A model generated the notes under the pieces. The model was not told the DNA's origin. It searched no databases and saw only the letters and a list, made by a program, of their open reading frames with translations. From the NCBI RefSeq assembly GCF_056746865.1, contig NZ_CM163382.1: DNA of 64,000 nt. One strand, given 5' to 3'. Positions 8,904 through 47,977 of the stretch are shown one piece after another (positions within the stretch are counted from its first letter, which is position 1; each line of letters starts with the position of its first letter). The position numbers and the translations under genes were made by a program.

Positions 8904-10358
8904 ATGGAACATCAGAGAAAACTATTCCAGCAACGCGGCTATAGCGAAGATCTATTGCCGAAAACGCAAAGCCAGCGGACCTGGAAAACATTTAACTATT
9001 TTACCTTATGGATGGGTTCGGTTCATAACGTTCCCAATTATGTGATGGTCGGCGGCTTTTTTATTCTCGGCTTGTCTACCTTTAGTATTATGCTGGCAAT
9101 TATCCTCAGCGCCTTTTTCATTGCCGCGGTAATGGTATTAAACGGTGCTGCGGGCAGTAAATACGGTGTGCCTTTTGCCATGATCCTGCGTGCTTCTTAC
9201 GGCGTACGTGGTGCACTGTTTCCCGGATTATTAAGAGGCGGGATTGCTGCCATTATGTGGTTTGGCCTGCAATGTTACGCTGGATCGCTGGCCTGCTTGA
9301 TTCTGATTGGCAAAATCTGGCCGGGATTTTTAACTCTCGGTGGTGATTTTACCCTGTTAGGGCTTTCTCTACCGGGCTTAATCACTTTCTTACTCTTCTG
9401 GCTGGTGAACGTCGGAATCGGTTTCGGTGGTGGCAAAGTTTTAAATAAATTCACTGCCATTCTTAACCCGTGCATCTATATCGTTTTCGGCGGTATGGCG
9501 ATTTGGGCGATTTCGCTGGTCGGGCTCGGTCCAATCTTTGACTACATTCCGAGCGGTATTCAGAAAGCAGAAAACAGTGGCTTCCTGTTCCTGGTGGTGA
9601 TTAACGCGGTAGTTGCGGTCTGGGCGGCACCGGCGGTGAGCGCATCCGACTTTACGCAAAACGCCCACTCGTTTCGTGAGCAGGCGCTGGGGCAAACGCT
9701 CGGTTTAGTTGTGGCCTATATTCTGTTTGCGGTCGCCGGGGTATGTATTATTGCCGGAGCCAGTATTCACTACGGCGCTGACACCTGGAACGTGCTGGAT
9801 ATTGTTCAGCGTTGGGATAGCCTGTTTGCCTCGTTCTTTGCGGTACTGGTTATTCTGATGACGACTATCTCCACTAACGCCACCGGTAATATTATTCCTG
9901 CTGGTTATCAGATTGCCGCTATTGCACCGACGAAACTGACCTATAAAAACGGCGTACTGATTGCCAGTATTATCAGCCTGCTGATCTGCCCGTGGAAATT
10001 AATGGAAAATCAGGACAGTATTTATCTGTTCCTCGATATTATCGGCGGAATGCTGGGTCCGGTAATTGGTGTCATGATGGCGCATTATTTTGTGGTGATG
10101 CGTGGGCAAATTAATCTTGATGAACTGTACACCGCACCTGGCGATTATAAATATTACGATAACGGTTTTAACCTCACTGCGTTTTCAGTAACTCTGGTGG
10201 CCGTTATTTTATCTCTTGGCGGTAAGTTTATTCCCTTTATGGAACCGTTATCTCGTGTTTCATGGTTTGTCGGCGTCATCGTCGCCTTTGCGGCCTACGC
10301 CTTATTAAAGAAACGTACAACAGCAGAAAAAACAGGAGAGCAAAAAACCATAGGTTAA
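8904..10358 (+). CDS. ybbW: Allantoin permease (NCS1 family)
   Basis: 484 aa; polytopic membrane protein; synteny before allB. Confidence 0.85.
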   Translation: MEHQRKLFQQRGYSEDLLPKTQSQRTWKTFNYFTLWMGSVHNVPNYVMVGGFFILGLSTFSIMLAIILSAFFIAAVMVLNGAAGSKYGVPFAMILRASYGVRGALFPGLLRGGIAAIMWFGLQCYAGSLACLILIGKIWPGFLTLGGDFTLLGLSLPGLITFLLFWLVNVGIGFGGGKVLNKFTAILNPCIYIVFGGMAIWAISLVGLGPIFDYIPSGIQKAENSGFLFLVVINAVVAVWAAPAVSASDFTQNAHSFREQALGQTLGLVVAYILFAVAGVCIIAGASIHYGADTWNVLDIVQRWDSLFASFFAVLVILMTTISTNATGNIIPAGYQIAAIAPTKLTYKNGVLIASIISLLICPWKLMENQDSIYLFLDIIGGMLGPVIGVMMAHYFVVMRGQINLDELYTAPGDYKYYDNGFNLTAFSVTLVAVILSLGGKFIPFMEPLSRVSWFVGVIVAFAAYALLKKRTTAEKTGEQKTIG

Positions 10359-10417
10359 TTAATCCCGATATTGAACATTGAGTTAAAAACCAATCTGTAT
10401 TTTACAAGGAGTTTGTT

Positions 10418-11779
10418 ATGTCTTTTGATTTAATCATTAAAAACGGCACCGTTATTTTAGAAAACGAAGCTCGCGTTGTAGATATCGCCGTTAAAGGCGG
10501 AAAAATTGCTGCTATCGGTCAGGATCTGGGCGATGCAAAAGAAGTTATGGATGCGTCTGGTCTGGTGGTTTCGCCAGGCATGGTTGATGCGCACACCCAT
10601 ATTTCTGAACCGGGTCGTAGCCACTGGGAAGGTTATGAAACTGGTACTCGCGCAGCGGCAAAAGGTGGTATCACCACCATGATCGAAATGCCGCTCAACC
10701 AGCTGCCTGCAACGGTTGACCGCGCTTCAATTGAACTGAAGTTCGATGCCGCTAAAGGCAAGCTGACTATCGATGCGGCACAACTCGGTGGCCTGGTGTC
10801 TTACAACATCGACCGTCTGCATGAGCTGGATGAAGTGGGCGTTGTCGGCTTCAAATGCTTCGTTGCGACCTGTGGCGATCGCGGTATCGACAACGACTTC
10901 CGTGACGTCAATGACTGGCAGTTCTTCAAAGGTGCGCAGAAGCTGGGCGAACTGGGGCAGCCGGTGCTGGTGCACTGCGAAAACGCACTGATCTGTGATG
11001 CACTGGGCGAAGAAGCGAAAAGTGAAGGTCGCGTAACTGCCCATGACTATGTGGCTTCGCGTCCGGTATTTACCGAAGTGGAAGCGATTCGCCGCGTACT
11101 GTACCTGGCGAAAGTTGCCGGTTGCCGTCTGCACATTTGCCATATCAGCAGCCCGGAAGGCGTTGAGGAAGTGACTCGTGCACGTCAGGAAGGTCAGGAT
11201 GTTACCTGTGAATCCTGCCCGCATTACTTTGTACTGGATACCGAACAGTTCGAAGAAATCGGTACTCTGGCGAAGTGTTCACCGCCGATCCGCGATCTGG
11301 AAAACCAGAAAGGCATGTGGGAAAAACTATTTAACGGTGAAATCGACTGCCTGGTTTCCGACCACTCACCATGCCCTCCGGAAATGAAAGCCGGCAACAT
11401 CATGGAAGCATGGGGCGGTATTGCCGGTCTGCAAAACTGTATGGACGTGATGTTCGATGAAGCGGTACAGAAACGCGGAATGTCTCTGCCAATGTTCGGC
11501 AAATTAATGGCGACTAACGCAGCAGATATTTTCGGTCTGCAGCAAAAAGGCCGTATCGCCCCAGGAAAAGATGCCGACTTCGTCTTCATTCAGCCGAATA
11601 GCAGCTATGTTCTTACCAATGACGATCTGGAATATCGCCACAAAGTCAGCCCGTATGTTGGCCGTACCATTGGCGCGCGTATCACGAAAACCATCTTACG
11701 TGGTGATGTGATTTACGACATTGAACAGGGCTTCCCTGTTGCGCCGAAAGGTCAATTTATCCTTAAACATCAGCAGTAA
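10418..11779 (+). CDS. allB: Allantoinase
   Basis: 453 aa; amidohydrolase metal-binding motifs (DAHTH). Confidence 0.9.
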
Positions 11780-11835
11780 TCTGGCCCCTGCAATGCCCGT
11801 CCTTGCGGCGGGCATTCTCCGGTTAAGGTGTGTTT

Positions 11836-35834: not shown

Positions 35835-35911
35835 GCGCCCTTAGCTCAGTTGGATAGAGCAACGACCTTCTAAGTCGTGGGCCGCAGGTTCGAATCCTGC
35901 AGGGCGCGCCA
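35835..35911 (+). tRNA. argU: tRNA-Arg (anticodon TCT, reads AGA/AGG)
   Basis: 77-nt cloverleaf GCGCCCTTAGCTCAGTTGGATAGAGC...TCTAA...GGTTCGAATCCTGCAGGGCGCGCCA. Confidence 0.95.
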
Positions 35912-40034: not shown

Positions 40035-40331
40035 TTATACCTCTGAATCAATATCAACCTGGTGGTGAGCAATGGTTTCAACCATGTACCGGATGTGTTC
40101 TGCCATGCGCTCCTGAAACTCAACATCGTCATCAAACGCACGGGTAATGGCTTTTTTGCTGGCCCCGTGGCGTTGCAAATGATCGATGCATAGCGATTCA
40201 AACAGGTGCTGGGGCAGGCCTTTTTCCATGTCGTCTGCCAGTTCTGCCTCTTTCTCTTCACGGGCGATCTGCTGGTAGTGACGCGCCCAGCTCTGAGCCT
40301 CAAGACGATCCTGAATGTAATAAGCGTTCAT
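40035..40331 (-). CDS. gam: Lambda-type Gam (RecBCD inhibitor), 98-aa form
   Basis: [60 protein letters not shown]... matches lambda GamS. Confidence 0.93.
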
Positions 40332-40406
40332 GGCTGAACTCCTGAAAATGGCTGTGAAAAAATCGCCCGCGGAATGCCAGGCTGATTCGGAAAACAGGAA
40401 AGGGGA

Positions 40407-40697
40407 TTAGTGATTCAGACCGTTGCCGCGTCCGTCGAGAAAAACTTCCACGAGCAAGTCACGGGTATAAGTGCGCTCAATGCCGCGATGCAGATAAAGT
40501 CGTCCGCGTAAATTAGCTGATGCAGTCCAGGTACCATCTTTGCGTTTGACCAGCATTCCTGGCATGACCGCACCGCGATTAACGGTCTGCGTTCCGTAAT
40601 GTTGATGAACCATAAAAACTCCTGCCCGTAAGCTGGGCTGCTGAACATATAAAGACTTCTGCGCGTATTCAGGCGGTGGATGGCCGCCGGTTGTCAT
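40407..40697 (-). CDS. Hypothetical protein, first ORF downstream of the putative pL
   Basis: 96-aa ORF with GAGG RBS; no recognisable N/kil/cIII motif. Confidence 0.4.
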   Translation of the reverse strand: MTTGGHPPPEYAQKSLYVQQPSLRAGVFMVHQHYGTQTVNRGAVMPGMLVKRKDGTWTASANLRGRLYLHRGIERTYTRDLLVEVFLDGRGNGLNH

Positions 40698-40879
40698 AAC
40701 TAAGCCGCCTCGTTGAAGCGACTAAGGTATGAAATGTTGAGTTGATTTCAGCTGGTCACACCGACGTTCACGCGTCCGTTTCATCCCTCGCACTCCCCGA
40801 AGCCTGCTGAAATTCAAGCTGCGGATCTAAGCGGTCATCGCAACGGTGAATCAGGTAGTTGCCGTATCGTTGTGTTGTT

Positions 40880-40970
40880 GCGATGAACTTATTTAAAACT
40901 ATAGTTGTTTTATCGTCAACAACAAAAGTTGTTTTATTGGTTGTTTTAGATATAACTGGTTGTATTTAGG
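40880..40970. promoter_or_regulatory. Putative OL/pL operator-promoter region
   Basis: Repeated TGGTTGT/ACAACAA half-sites (caacaacaaaagttgtt, ttattggttgtttt, taactggttgtat) shared with the cI-cro intergenic region. Confidence 0.55.
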
Positions 40971-41057
40971 ATGGATTTATTTTGTGACTTGAATCGCATA
41001 GCGATAACTGAAGCGAGGTTATGGTGGTTTTTTTAACGGTGTGTGTGATGAGGGGAG

Positions 41058-41087
41058 GGCAAAAGAAAACCCGGCACGGTGGCCGGG
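41058..41087 (-). terminator. Rho-independent terminator ending the cI-distal operon (tImm analogue)
   Basis: cccggcacggtggccggg hairpin followed on the minus strand by a U-rich tract, directly after the 310-aa gene stop. Confidence 0.7.
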
Positions 41088-41095
41088 TAGCATCA

Positions 41096-42028
41096 CTATT
41101 CGATTTTTTTAACCATGTAGTTACGTCGTGATGTTCCTAATCTTTCATTGTGAATCTCAGAAACGCTTACTACGAGCGATATTCGTTCACCAACTTTATA
41201 TTTACTTTGAATTTCTCCTAACATATCAATCGGATAAGAAGCCTTTATTTTTCCAAGCTCGCTTGCAATCTCCAATTTCCCGTACATGGATAAAATAGCA
41301 AGTTCGCCTGATATATGCTCATCCGGTAGCTGAATGACCTTCGTTAAAGCTAAGCGAGCATTCAGTTTTTTTATATCTTCTGAAGAAATTGACACTTGTC
41401 TGGTACCATCACTTAAAGGTCCAATCCAAGTAAGATCAAAGTTAAGACTATATTTTTCGCACTCATTTATGATGTTTTTTAGGTTAGCTGTTGATTGCGA
41501 ACCAATTTCGGCAATTTTAGCCGTGAATGTTTCTTCATCAATGGATGAGAGTAGTGCAAAAATCTCCTTAACAGCATGACTGGATACTGTTTCGATGAGC
41601 TCGCAAGAACCAGTAGAAAAAGTAACACCTAACTTCGTCGAACCTGGACGCAAGTCTGCCAATCTCATGTCTAATGATTTTTTAACATCAATCGGCACAC
41701 GACTAGAATCTTTCCCAGATCCAAGTCGGTAAACTGCTTTCTGTACAAGGGATGCGAGATTACCTGAAATTACAGATAGAATATCTAACGGAATAGACCC
41801 GAAATCGACCAAAACACCTTTTAATCTCAACTCCATGAAATCACGTAAAGGATGTTGGTTATCGATTGCACGTTGTCTCTCTCGGAGATCGCTCAGATGG
41901 GAGTCAAGTGATCTAAATATAATGTCATCAGCAAATGATCTCCCCTTATTTTGAGCAAGCAGATCCACATCGCGTTGAATGAACGCAATTCGCTCCTTGA
42001 GGGAGTTGAATGTTTTTTCTTCGCTCAT
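41096..42028 (-). CDS. Hypothetical protein, distal gene of the rexAB-position operon
   Basis: 310 aa; AT-rich; start overlaps stop of upstream 157-aa gene (ATGA); no recognisable family. Confidence 0.6.
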   Translation of the reverse strand: MSEEKTFNSLKERIAFIQRDVDLLAQNKGRSFADDIIFRSLDSHLSDLRERQRAIDNQHPLRDFMELRLKGVLVDFGSIPLDILSVISGNLASLVQKAVYRLGSGKDSSRVPIDVKKSLDMRLADLRPGSTKLGVTFSTGSCELIETVSSHAVKEIFALLSSIDEETFTAKIAEIGSQSTANLKNIINECEKYSLNFDLTWIGPLSDGTRQVSISSEDIKKLNARLALTKVIQLPDEHISGELAILSMYGKLEIASELGKIKASYPIDMLGEIQSKYKVGERISLVVSVSEIHNERLGTSRRNYMVKKIE

Positions 42029-42498
42029 AACATTACCCTCACGAGGCCTTTAGGATTCTCCTTCCGATCAAAACCAAACCACCCTCTCCAGTAACTTCGC
42101 CTTTCACTATAATCGATTTCTGGATGATTTTCAGGCAGCAAAAGAACGTCAATGCTGTAGTTTTCTTTAATAAAATCTCTATTTAACAATGAGCTGACCA
42201 ATGGCATCAGCGTGTTTGGCAAAGAGTTTAGGGCCAAATAATCGACGACCACGAGTATATCTATGTCATCAGGTTCAGGTTTCTCTGTAGTGAATGAACC
42301 ATCGATCCACACTTCAGAGAAACATAGACACTGCTGATTAACAAGTTTAAATTGCTCAATAAGCTGTATAAAATTACAGTATAGCATACTTCTTCTAACG
42401 GATTTTGGGAAGGTGTCGACACAAAGAGACTTGATGCCATCACTATCCATATCATGAAATCCTGCTGTAAGAAGAGGTGGGAAGCTAGGCTTTTCCAT
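42025..42498 (-). CDS. Putative minimal nucleotidyltransferase-fold protein, proximal gene of the rexAB-position operon
   Basis: 157 aa; GS-x9-DxD motif (WIDGSFTTEKPEPDDIDILVVVD) typical of the Pol-beta NTase superfamily; AT-rich. Confidence 0.55.
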   Translation of the reverse strand: MEKPSFPPLLTAGFHDMDSDGIKSLCVDTFPKSVRRSMLYCNFIQLIEQFKLVNQQCLCFSEVWIDGSFTTEKPEPDDIDILVVVDYLALNSLPNTLMPLVSSLLNRDFIKENYSIDVLLLPENHPEIDYSERRSYWRGWFGFDRKENPKGLVRVML

Positions 42499-42579
42499 CC
42501 TAAGTCCTTGTTTATGCCATATAGTGTTCTATTTAATATTCTTGAAAAGAGTGTGCCTTAAAAAGCTACAGGCTAATTA

Positions 42580-43269
42580 TTAACCATGCTTCCTGTACGT
42601 CTGCGGCATGCTCCCAATAACCTTACCGAAGATGAACACCCGGTTCATCTCGTCTTTCTCGATCGGGTCCCACGGTGAGTAGCTTTTGTTATCAGAGATG
42701 ACCAGCAGCTTATCCTTCATCATTTGCAGGCGCTTTACATGGGCTGTGTCGTCGTACAGAAACGCATAGATACCATCACCGTCGAAAGATTTAACTGTGA
42801 TATCAACGAACAGCAGATCACCTGGTTCGATCGTTCCTGACATGCTGTCACCACGCACGTTAATGATGCGGATATTTTCCGCCTTCCTACCATCGAACAT
42901 GTGACGAGCATCGTCAAACGAGTACTCAACCGAGCGTAGAACTTCTACAAACTCACGGTTGATGACTCCCGGCCCAGCACTGACTTCTATATCAAGAACG
43001 TCAATCTTGAAGTATTTGGAATGGCTGACAGTTGATTGTATTGGTTGCACTGTACTGTCTGACATATTTCCAACGCCAGAAGATAACCATTCTGCGCGCA
43101 CACCCAAAGCGTTCGCGATCTCCACGATTTTAGTTGTTTGATTAGCTTTCCCTGTTTCGATTTTCTGAATAGCAGCCTGGCTAACCCCGACCAAATCCCC
43201 AAGCGCCTTTTGTGTAAGGCCTCGCGCTAATCTGGCTTCTTTAAGTCTTTCTGAGAGTGTTGTTTTCAT
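42580..43269 (-). CDS. cI: CI-like prophage repressor (HTH plus S24 LexA-like autopeptidase)
   Basis: 229 aa from MKTTLSERLKEARLARGLTQKALGDLVGVSQAAIQKIE; C-terminal S24 region (GDSMSGT ... K); divergent from cro. Confidence 0.85.
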   Translation of the reverse strand: MKTTLSERLKEARLARGLTQKALGDLVGVSQAAIQKIETGKANQTTKIVEIANALGVRAEWLSSGVGNMSDSTVQPIQSTVSHSKYFKIDVLDIEVSAGPGVINREFVEVLRSVEYSFDDARHMFDGRKAENIRIINVRGDSMSGTIEPGDLLFVDITVKSFDGDGIYAFLYDDTAHVKRLQMMKDKLLVISDNKSYSPWDPIEKDEMNRVFIFGKVIGSMPQTYRKHG

Positions 43270-43274
43270 AGTCC

Positions 43275-43373
43275 AAATGTACAACCAAGGTTTTATTCCA
43301 TCAAACGAAAATGGTTGTTGACTAAAAACAACCATAGTTTTAATCTTGATTCAAATTAACCACGGAGGTTGTT
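43275..43373. promoter_or_regulatory. Putative OR/pR/pRM operator region
   Basis: Inverted repeat ATGGTTGT-n9-ACAACCAT (43311-43335) plus further ACAACCA/GGTTGTT half-sites between divergent cI and cro. Confidence 0.6.
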
Positions 43374-43604
43374 ATGAACCCAGCTATCAAAACAGCGATC
43401 AATATCGTTGGTTCACAAAAGAAACTGGGCGCTGCTTGCGAAGTTTCACAGCAGGCCGTCTATAAGTGGCTTCACAACAAAGCAAAGGTATCCCCTGAAC
43501 ATGTCGGCAGCATTGTTACGGCTACTGGTGGAGTAGTGAAGGCATACCAGATTCGCCCGGATCTTCCGAAGTTGTTTCCACACACCGAAAAGAACGCAGC
43601 TTAA
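43374..43604 (+). CDS. Cro-like HTH regulator (YdaS-like)
   Basis: 76 aa; HTH KKLGAACEVSQQAVYKWL; first gene rightward of the operators. Confidence 0.7.
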   Translation: MNPAIKTAINIVGSQKKLGAACEVSQQAVYKWLHNKAKVSPEHVGSIVTATGGVVKAYQIRPDLPKLFPHTEKNAA

Positions 43605-43673
43605 ATTTCCATTTCACGCTCTTTAACAATAAGCAATCAACTTAACAGTCAATTCAAACTAAAGGAGTCAATT

Positions 43674-44213
43674 ATGCAACCACTTCCATACCAACAGACT
43701 AGCGGATTTAGCCCGACTGCGGTGATAAATCGTTCTCAAACAAAACAGGTGCCAGGCCACGAAAAAATCCGTGATGCCGTCCGCGCCTGGTCGGCTGTAG
43801 ATAATCAGGATGTCGTTGCCACACTCATTGTGAATGAGTATCGGGAGCAGGGCGGCGGCACCATCGATTTCCCTGATGATGTCAGCCGTGCACGCCAGAA
43901 GCTGTTCCGCTTCCTCGATAACAAATTCGATTCTGAAAAATACCGAAATAACGTGCGTGAACTGACCCCGGCAATTCTGGCGGTACTACCGCTGGAATAT
44001 CGCGGTTACCTGGTTGAGCAGGATAGCTTCATGGCTAGGTTGGCTGAAATGGAAAAGGAACTCAGTGAGGCAAAACAGGCTGTCATTCTCAACGCACCAC
44101 GCCACCAGAAACTGAAGGAAATTAGTGAAGGTATTGTATCGATGTTTCGTGTGGACCCAGATCTGGCTGGTCCATTGATGGCGATGGTTACTACCATGCT
44201 GGGGGCGATATGA
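43674..44213 (+). CDS. CII-position regulatory protein (YdaT/CII-like family suspected)
   Basis: 179 aa; position between cro and O; family assignment from memory, not verified. Confidence 0.45.
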   Translation: MQPLPYQQTSGFSPTAVINRSQTKQVPGHEKIRDAVRAWSAVDNQDVVATLIVNEYREQGGGTIDFPDDVSRARQKLFRFLDNKFDSEKYRNNVRELTPAILAVLPLEYRGYLVEQDSFMARLAEMEKELSEAKQAVILNAPRHQKLKEISEGIVSMFRVDPDLAGPLMAMVTTMLGAI

Positions 44214-46474: not shown

Positions 46475-47977
46475 TTAAATTGCATCTGCAAACTCTGGGG
46501 TTTTTCGCTCAGGTATAATTGATGAGTTGCTGTTGTCACTTTTTTTATTTTCATGATTACGAATAGCCAATGACTCATTAAAGTCTTTTGCGACTGCTGT
46601 CTCAATAAATTCAATTTCTGAATCAGAGTGTTTTTTAACAGCTTCTTTGATCTCATCCAGAGTAACATAGAAAAACTCTTTTCTACGATTTACAAGATTG
46701 ACTCTCTTTTTATCGAAGACATCATGTAGTTTTTTTTCTAATGATGGAGCGTCCTCCGAATAAATCATGGCATGTACATCAAAAATAAAAGGAACAGATG
46801 CATCACCGAGCTCATTTACACGGTCTTGCGGATCAAGACGTCGTGTCATGCCTATTTTATAAACATTCTCCCCAAAAGAACCTATGTTCGAAATAATATA
46901 AACATGACCTTGTTTGGTTTGTTGTGCCATGGATAATGCTCTTTGATGCTTTGATTCAGCCTGCGACAAACTCTGTTCTAGTTCGGCAATGCGATTTTCG
47001 AGGCGCTGCTTCATGTCACCAGTAACTTTTTCCATTTCCTTTCTTGCAGCTTCAATTGCTTTTTTATAACGGCGCTCTTCTGCCTCTGCGTCTTGCATGG
47101 CCTTTTCTATTTCTCGTTGTGCACGCTCCTCCTCTCTCATTTGTGCCCTTATTTCTGCCTGTTCTTCTTTTTCTTTCTGTTTTTGCTCACGATATTCATG
47201 GGTAAGCCACAATTCCTCAAGTTTTTTATTGAGGTATTTAGTGTTTATATATATGTGATTTTGCTCGTTTAGTTTATTTATGGCCTCAAATGCCTTTGTG
47301 ATGCGTTCTTCCATTTTAGTGATGTTTTTCCACGTGCAATTGCTAATTGCAGCATCACATTCATTATTAAATGCTCTAGTAGTTAGCCTGATATTTCTGT
47401 CTGTCATTTTTTTACCCTCTGCTCGAGAGCCTTCAACAGTCCATTGGGTTGTACAATATACTGCGCCAGAGTGGGTTTTATCCCGCAGCATTAATTTCTG
47501 TTCATCCCTGATGGATTTTATTTTGTTTTTAAATTGCTCTGAATCTTCAAAATTAAAATGAGGTTCGTAAAATCCTAGTTCGGCTAGCTCAACATCTTCT
47601 GAATAAATAGAAATTTGCCTTACTAGTTTATCATATATTTCTTTCTTCTCTTTATAAGTTCTTCTTAGCTCTTGGATTTGTTTATTGATACCATCCATTT
47701 TTTCAATGGTGTTTGTTAGTTCATTATTGGCATTTTCTTTTACTTTTAGGGATTCTTCTTTTATTATGGAGCATTCTTGCTCTGTTTTCTCAATAAGCTT
47801 CTTACATTCTTCTTCTACATTAAAATAATCTGCAAAGCGAGATTTGTATTCTTCATTTTTTTGATTGCTATCACTTAATTCTAATTGTATTTTTTTGATG
47901 CGTTTGATTGCAGCTATATAAAGAACAAGAACAACCAATAAAAATATGATTGCAAGTAATAGAGGAGTTTGAGTCAT
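46475..47977 (-). CDS. Membrane-anchored coiled-coil protein with C-terminal T5orf172/GIY-YIG-like domain (DUF4041-like middle region)
   Basis: 500 aa; N-terminal TM helix (LLLAIIFLLVVLVLYIAAI); long E/K/R-rich coiled coils; C-terminal GHVYIISNIGSFGENVYKIGMTRRLDPQDRVNELGDASVPFIFDVHAMIY; antisense to flanking phage genes; strongly AT-rich. Confidence 0.7.
   Translation of the reverse strand: MTQTPLLLAIIFLLVVLVLYIAAIKRIKKIQLELSDSNQKNEEYKSRFADYFNVEEECKKLIEKTEQECSIIKEESLKVKENANNELTNTIEKMDGINKQIQELRRTYKEKKEIYDKLVRQISIYSEDVELAELGFYEPHFNFEDSEQFKNKIKSIRDEQKLMLRDKTHSGAVYCTTQWTVEGSRAEGKKMTDRNIRLTTRAFNNECDAAISNCTWKNITKMEERITKAFEAINKLNEQNHIYINTKYLNKKLEELWLTHEYREQKQKEKEEQAEIRAQMREEERAQREIEKAMQDAEAEERRYKKAIEAARKEMEKVTGDMKQRLENRIAELEQSLSQAESKHQRALSMAQQTKQGHVYIISNIGSFGENVYKIGMTRRLDPQDRVNELGDASVPFIFDVHAMIYSEDAPSLEKKLHDVFDKKRVNLVNRRKEFFYVTLDEIKEAVKKHSDSEIEFIETAVAKDFNESLAIRNHENKKSDNSNSSIIPERKTPEFADAI

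Follow-up and report, generated by a model that had tools for sequence, protein, structure and literature searches.

A predicted minimal nucleotidyltransferase and its partner form a catalogued defense candidate in the rexAB-equivalent slot of a lambdoid Escherichia coli prophage

Our main finding is that two adjacent genes of a lambda-like E. coli prophage, hereafter called A and B, are horizontally acquired cargo in the rexAB-equivalent slot, adjoining the repressor gene, of a lambdoid prophage located at tRNA-Arg(tct). The genes belong to a stretch of 64,000 nucleotides of contig NZ_CM163382.1 (RefSeq assembly GCF_056746865.1), which is referred to, in its full length, as the window. Judging from its sequence, gene A probably encodes a minimal Pol-beta-type nucleotidyltransferase, and gene B encodes a larger partner. 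With a probability of roughly 0.45, we favor the view that the two are expressed in the lysogen and act as a toxin-antitoxin-like or abortive-infection module, the partner being under the control of the nucleotidyltransferase. PADLOC already lists the pair as the phage-defense candidate PDC-M63, A being a member of the Pfam family DUF6932 and B of a family without a name. What is left as novelty therefore concerns experimental validation and mechanism rather than discovery.

The order of elements at the locus is OR, cI, A, B, terminator, OL, kil, gam, bet and exo, where OR and OL designate the right and left operators (coordinates in Table 1). This is the layout of the lambda cI-rexA-rexB-tImm segment, as the initial annotation had recognized: A and B lie downstream of the repressor gene in the same orientation, and the unit is closed by a terminator just before OL. 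The two open reading frames (ORFs) have an ATGA in common, which provides both the stop of A and the start of B (a 4-nt overlap), and their position behind a cI-like repressor gene is borne out by the coordinates and by the PHROG 4 match of the repressor. The latter, whose RefSeq start corresponds to position 43269 (equivalent of 42580..43269), also has NCBIfam matches of the S24/LexA type, and the annotation of strain 118UI lists it as an S24 family peptidase. A pattern scan of the spacer between cI and A predicted no terminator or promoter-like site on the minus strand, and gene A is probably co-transcribed with cI. At the other end of the unit, the hairpin terminator that had been proposed is indeed present, with a GC-rich stem of 7 bp (6 G-C pairs) situated 8 nt past the gene B stop codon; the centroid fold retains this stem, and the distance from the terminator to the left operator is about 150 bp. 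An Rfam scan of positions 40300-43700 detected no RNA family.

The operators were located by scanning the whole window for the pattern GTTGTT-N4-10-AACAAC. Exactly two sites were found, both of the form GTTGTT-N7/8-AACAAC, for a chance expectation of 0.04. Moreover, a 19-nt inverted repeat, 95% complementary, joins the OR site to positions 40893-40911 at OL. On the basis of this palindrome pair and of the inverted repeat, we assign OL to the DNA immediately past the terminator, and OR to the interval that separates cI from a divergent cro-like gene at 43374.

To examine the slot itself, the OL-to-OR DNA was used as a query against E. coli genomes. The same cI, OL and OR flanks, at 95-100% identity, exist without cargo in some E. 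coli, for example ST131, and at least eight alternative cargo sets were observed between OL and cI, several of them uncharacterized themselves. Among these are a RexA-family gene with a hypothetical protein, DUF3037 with a HipA-family kinase, and PP2C with a Ser/Thr kinase; a BamE-like protein, ASCH, DUF6414, IS1 and hypothetical proteins were also encountered, and phage records likewise show alternative cargo. The suggestion that A and B occupy a cargo slot is thus well founded. In the viral sequences of IMG/VR, a cI-like gene is found within 500 bp upstream of the pair and on the same strand in 57 of 80 loci, and clustering of these upstream repressors at 60% identity gives 21 groups. These numbers illustrate that lambdoid prophages use the site immediately following the repressor gene as a general hotspot for cargo.

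The pair is mobile. Among 5426 complete E. coli genomes, 97 have the identical A-B DNA, in every case on the chromosome. In phage PhiR30_1, a version of the pair with 99% identity lies next to a cI that is partly different, and in phage mEpX1 (B 55% identical) and Erwinia phage vB_EhrS_59 (B 72% identical) the pair is found directly behind unrelated repressors. The arrangement behind a repressor also occurs in genomes of Pseudomonas, Halopseudomonas and Trinickia. As previously remarked, genes A and B are AT-rich: their GC content is 0.393, versus 0.51 and 0.50 in the neighboring phage genes and 0.496 in the window. This low GC content and the variable occupancy of the slot together support the horizontal acquisition that had been suggested.

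The pairing of A and B is obligate. A profile scan with protein A, using one genome per species, yielded 80 genome loci, 77 of which have a B-family ORF directly downstream and in the same orientation. These loci cover Proteobacteria, Bacteroidota, Nitrospirae, Firmicutes, Verrucomicrobia, Acidobacteria, Cyanobacteria and Parcubacteria. The two genes are likewise adjacent in all 80 viral loci of IMG/VR. Spacing is tight, the 77 genome pairs including 46 with a 4-nt start/stop overlap and 74 with at most 20 nt between the genes. For distant B homologues residing on contigs of 1-2 kb, DUF6932 was found upstream in two of three cases, and the third contig was too short upstream. No conserved third gene was found around the pair among the loci compared. 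Neighbors outside phages are mixed, with recurrent transposases and otherwise mainly housekeeping or unmatched genes.

Protein A matches the PADLOC model PDLC04744 (PDC-M63A) over residues 1-156 with an E-value of 7.4e-43, and Pfam DUF6932 with an E-value of 5e-26; its NCBIfam scan returned nothing. It had been designated a nucleotidyltransferase for its GS-x9-DxD signature, which is contained in WIDGSFTTEKPEPDDIDILVVVD (residues 64-86), and conservation argues for this designation. Indeed, G67-S68, D78, D80, K73, R36, W137, R145 and K150 are invariant in 34 homologues, down to 36% identity, and the third carboxylate, D117, is conserved in at least 90% of them. The Pol-beta signature hG[GS]...DxD...D is complete, its residues being carried by predicted strands 60-66, 79-86 and 116-123. 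Sub-threshold Pfam matches to Polbeta, NTP_transf_2 and DNA_pol_B_palm recur in 8-17 of the 34 members, and searches of PDB sequences, with the single sequence or with a profile, gave nothing significant. The AlphaFold (AF2) model of protein A has a predicted local distance difference test score (pLDDT) of 96. Its comparison with Foldseek, an approach advocated in the initial annotation, gave as nearest solved folds the MntA antitoxins bound to HepT (7ae9, 7ae2, 6m6u and 8xeo), followed by HI0073, 2rff, AadA/ANT(9) and CdnC. These matches are mostly to nucleotidyltransferases, and they are weak (E-values of 5e-3 to 0.1, template modeling (TM) scores of about 0.3-0.35). We accept protein A as a putative minimal Pol-beta nucleotidyltransferase, whose active-site motif is intact.

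Protein B is more enigmatic. It matches six PADLOC models of PDC-M63B, the best being PDLC04749 (E-value 4e-42). Both proteins match their PDC-M63 models over the full length, and the genes are adjacent and on the same strand. The PADLOC check that had been proposed for the pair hence returned PDC-M63 for A and B alike, and there was no meaningful PADLOC match beyond it. Given PDC-M63 and DUF6932, the term 'uncharacterized' that had been applied to the pair is better read as 'catalogued candidate'. Both proteins belong to PHROGs of unknown function. Pfam contains no match for protein B alone or for 45 members of its family, the NCBIfam scan of B gave only noise, and no significant sequence relative was found in PDB with the single sequence or with a profile. 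The family is nevertheless large, with 279 clusters at 50% identity in a full-database profile search, and its members are about 300-355 amino acids long, aside from a few short fragments. Our literature search found no paper mentioning DUF6932, PF22014 or the RefSeq protein accessions, keywords on nucleotidyltransferase/OB-fold defense pairs retrieved nothing relevant, and no publication was traced from which the PhiR phage records and their labels HipD and GevT/GevA derive.

In its predicted structure (pLDDT 77.5, predicted TM score 0.65), protein B consists of a helical hairpin (residues 10-56), a central alpha/beta region (64-228) and a C-terminal barrel (229-309). The modeled C-terminal domain has five strands arranged as b1-b2-b3-helix-b4-b5, which corresponds to an OB fold. 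Foldseek searches of AFDB50 gave 849 structural relatives. Those listed, which come from Actinobacteria, Firmicutes and an ANME archaeon among others, are almost without exception uncharacterized. Among 45 diverse members, strict invariance is limited to S130 and W201, followed in conservation by E/D63, R68, R122, an acidic position at 142/143, and several Gly and Pro. The central alpha/beta domain holds the only polar residues conserved family-wide (E/D63, R68, R122, S130 and W201). No membrane segment was found in protein B. It looks like a scaffold of non-enzymatic appearance, with a possible binding pocket. It had been speculated that RAIDNQH, residues 53-59 of B, could be an R-x5-H motif of the HEPN type. 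This idea fails, as R53 varies among close relatives and H59 is lost in the wider family. More generally, the 45 diverse B proteins contain no conserved Rx4-6H and no conserved His, and the HEPN reading of B was rejected.

Loci in which A is not followed by a standard B are informative about the partner. In five loci, a protein of 134-215 amino acids from a small family (6 clusters) replaces the 310-aa partner after DUF6932 (Table 1). Those of L034 and L037 have only their first ~60 residues in common with protein B (hidden Markov model (HMM) E-values of 5e-6 and 1e-5); past the hairpin, they are made of hydrophobic, membrane-like helices (Kyte-Doolittle 19-residue mean up to 2.08). Since the short partners share only these ~60 N-terminal residues of B, the hairpin appears to be the constant part of the partner and the remainder to be exchangeable. 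The hairpin may then be the docking site for the nucleotidyltransferase. A further partner, of 326 amino acids (L078, 4067-5047), follows DUF6932 in a Blastocatellia metagenome-assembled genome; it is TPR-like by eye, and visual comparison alone suggests a hairpin-like N-terminus, with no HMM match. One locus contains an orphan A (L060), and a Terriglobia metagenome-assembled genome contains a truncated A and no B (L064). In the latter, a 914-aa helicase-like ORF (9075-11819) adjoins the truncated DUF6932 gene. Finally, L020, L023, L042 and L056 combine an intact A with a split or truncated B, and the reverse occurs at most once (L072), these counts being small and some of the loci coming from metagenome-assembled genomes. 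A harmful B would be expected to decay in this way, with A left intact.

The mechanism that we favor would proceed as follows. A and B would be transcribed together with cI in the lysogen, and A would dock on the N-terminal hairpin of B. Using a nucleoside triphosphate, A would nucleotidylylate B, or a ligand held by B, and thereby keep B inactive, much as MntA does with HepT in type VII toxin-antitoxin systems. An infecting phage would disturb this control, and B would be released as an effector that halts the cell or the phage. The case for B as the effector is built on the order of the genes, their start/stop overlap, the exchangeable partners with membrane tails, and the decay pattern. We also count as supporting company the PD-Lambda-1 gene described below, which is a second defense-type cargo gene in the same prophage.

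Several observations pull the other way. The structural match between protein A and minimal nucleotidyltransferases is weak (best E-value 5e-3, TM score about 0.35). No catalytic motif or toxin chemistry is evident in protein B across the 45 members, whose conserved residues are mostly Gly, Pro and Trp. The OB domain of B is not basic, with 12 K+R versus 11 D+E, so that its charge gives no sign of nucleic-acid binding. The 20 immediate neighbors at 11 non-enterobacterial loci comprise one HsdR, one IS21 IstB and otherwise housekeeping or unmatched genes, and 10 unmatched non-enterobacterial neighbors scanned against PADLOC matched no defense model. With one HsdR among the 20 neighbors and no PADLOC match, we make no claim of defense-island enrichment. 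Finally, the only study found in our literature search that names PDC-M63 deleted PDC-M63AB in its native host, E. coli NILS69, and the infectivity of 10 virulent double-stranded DNA phages was unchanged; its authors state that PDC-M63 had never been verified before.

The foremost competing explanation, which we nonetheless regard as improbable, reverses the roles of the two proteins. B would be a sensor or specificity subunit, reading phage nucleic acid or protein through its OB barrel or central pocket, and A would be the effector, which would nucleotidylylate a cellular target, for example tRNA acceptor ends, in the manner of the MenT/AbiEii toxins, leading to growth arrest. In HI0073/HI0074 and related pairs, the minimal nucleotidyltransferase has no substrate-binding domain of its own and depends on a second subunit, a part that B could play for A. 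Such a division of labor agrees with the presence of clear catalytic residues in A only, with the predicted OB fold at the end of B, of the type of SSB, RPA and PriB, and with the fast divergence of B surface residues, which is common in sensors. However, a toxic A fits poorly with the existence of an orphan A and with the fact that B, not A, is usually the broken gene. Moreover, replacement partners with membrane-type tails resemble effectors rather than sensors, and protein A is without similarity to the DUF1814/AbiEii models in PADLOC.

Less probable still is that A and B form a selfish addiction or toxin-antitoxin module, or serve another lysogenic-conversion function, with no role in excluding other phages. 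The lack of a defense phenotype in NILS69 agrees with this proposal, as do the transposase genes that recur among neighbors outside phages, the lack of a defense gene among the sampled non-phage neighbors scanned against PADLOC, and the use of the same slot by pairs containing a HipA-type kinase toxin. Yet the negative test involved 10 virulent phages and one strain, RexA-family genes also occupy the slot, and the curators of PADLOC list the pair as a defense candidate. Many toxin-antitoxin modules also double as defenses.

A signaling scheme akin to CBASS/SMODS, in which A would make a nucleotide second messenger and the conserved central pocket of B would bind it, seems very improbable to us. 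CdnC is among the weak structural matches of A, and the conserved polar residues of B, judged from their sequence positions, lie on or near adjacent predicted strands in a pocket-like manner; but protein A, with its 157 residues, is devoid of the C-terminal helical lobe of CD-NTases, no PADLOC CBASS model is matched by A or B, and the start/stop overlap and shared docking hairpin favor a stoichiometric complex over a diffusible signal. Least credible of all is the reading of A and B as a divergent type VII toxin-antitoxin system of the HEPN-MNT kind. The nucleotidyltransferase-first order, the size of A and the MntA structural match speak for it, but it is contradicted by the variation of R53 and H59, by the lack of a conserved His in B, and by the lack of any Pfam HEPN family or PADLOC HEPN-type match for A or B.

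Compared with characterized systems, the A-B pair is a variation on the two-gene theme of minimal nucleotidyltransferases, with a new type of partner. In HepT-MntA (PMC13000451), the nucleotidyltransferase neutralizes its partner by poly-AMPylation. The likeness lies in a small minimal nucleotidyltransferase that is encoded first and translationally coupled to a larger partner, MntA being also the best structural neighbor of A. The partner differs, as B is not a HEPN protein and is modeled instead as a hairpin, an alpha/beta domain and an OB barrel, and A has additional conserved elements at its N- and C-termini, PPLL-GFH and RSYWRGWFGFDR, which define DUF6932. AbiE/MenAT (DUF1814) systems are likewise two-gene modules built around a nucleotidyltransferase of Pol-beta fold on mobile DNA, but A is half the size, belongs to another family and comes first in the operon, no AbiEi-type helix-turn-helix antitoxin is present, and PADLOC gave no AbiE match. 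From CBASS, the pair is set apart by the absence of any PADLOC CBASS model match, CdnC being only a weak and partial structural match of A. Finally, in spite of the shared genomic layout, A and B have no sequence or family relation to RexA and RexB, as the initial annotation had noted: there is no RexA-family NCBIfam match, and membrane segments, a feature of RexB, are absent from B.

Minimal nucleotidyltransferases have so far been understood mainly through HEPN-MNT pairs. If functional, the A-B pair would represent a new class of partner for them, and it would add a defense or toxin module spread across many phyla, as the 279 clusters of B and its 849 structural relatives in AFDB50 indicate. 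It is conceivable, though on balance doubtful, that DUF6932 modules make up a separate and widespread class of immune or toxin systems governed by nucleotidyltransferases, parallel to HEPN-MNT, in which docking on the hairpin and covalent control of interchangeable effectors would protect the lysogen. Equally tentatively, the effector bodies of such a class would comprise the alpha/beta-plus-OB body, membrane-inserting tails and TPR arrays, and the modules would be lodged behind phage repressor genes.

Table 1. Features of the A-B locus in the window, and short genes replacing B in other loci (positions of the latter are given by locus)
Feature	Position	Strand	Description
Gene A	42025..42498	-	157-aa ORF; putative minimal Pol-beta-type nucleotidyltransferase (DUF6932 / PDC-M63A)
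Gene B	41096..42028	-	310-aa ORF; PDC-M63B; predicted N-terminal helical hairpin, central alpha/beta domain and C-terminal OB-fold barrel
cI-like repressor	42580..43335 as longest ORF	-	Helix-turn-helix and S24 peptidase domain; PHROG 4, E 5e-73
Spacer between cI and gene A, 81 bp	42499..42579	-	AAGGA Shine-Dalgarno 6 nt before ATG
Intrinsic terminator closing the cI-A-B unit	41069..41088	-	ACCCGGC-loop-GCCGGGU, then UUUUCUUUU
Right operator region (OR), between cI and cro	43300..43345	.	Palindrome GTTGTTGACTAAAAACAAC at 43314-43332
Left operator region (OL/pL)	40893..40937	.	Palindrome GTTGTTTTATCGTCAACAAC at 40904-40923
tRNA-Arg (anticodon tct)	35835-35911	+	Prophage attachment site; the prophage abuts this tRNA
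Short partner gene, L034	2907-3341		
Short partner gene, L037	8365-9012		
Short partner gene, L090	1189-1674		
Short partner gene, L091	544-1029		
Short partner gene, L092	3001-3405		

Other features of the prophage deserve mention. In strain 118UI, the integrase gene lies directly beside the equivalent tRNA-Arg, next to fimZ. Between OL and kil (40698-40890), the window contains about 200 nt of non-coding DNA, with no N-like ORF and no Rfam match. As no N-like ORF separates the left operator from kil, early antitermination in this phage may operate without an N protein. The gene in the position of cII (43674-44213, plus strand) is a 'toxin YdaT domain-containing protein' in RefSeq and cII in phage records, and has no PADLOC match. 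Lastly, downstream of ren, a 500-aa ORF (46475-47977, minus strand) matches PD-Lambda-1 in PADLOC with an E-value of 2e-198; it is annotated as a DUF4041 protein in RefSeq and lies in a very AT-rich stretch with a GC content of 0.29-0.37.

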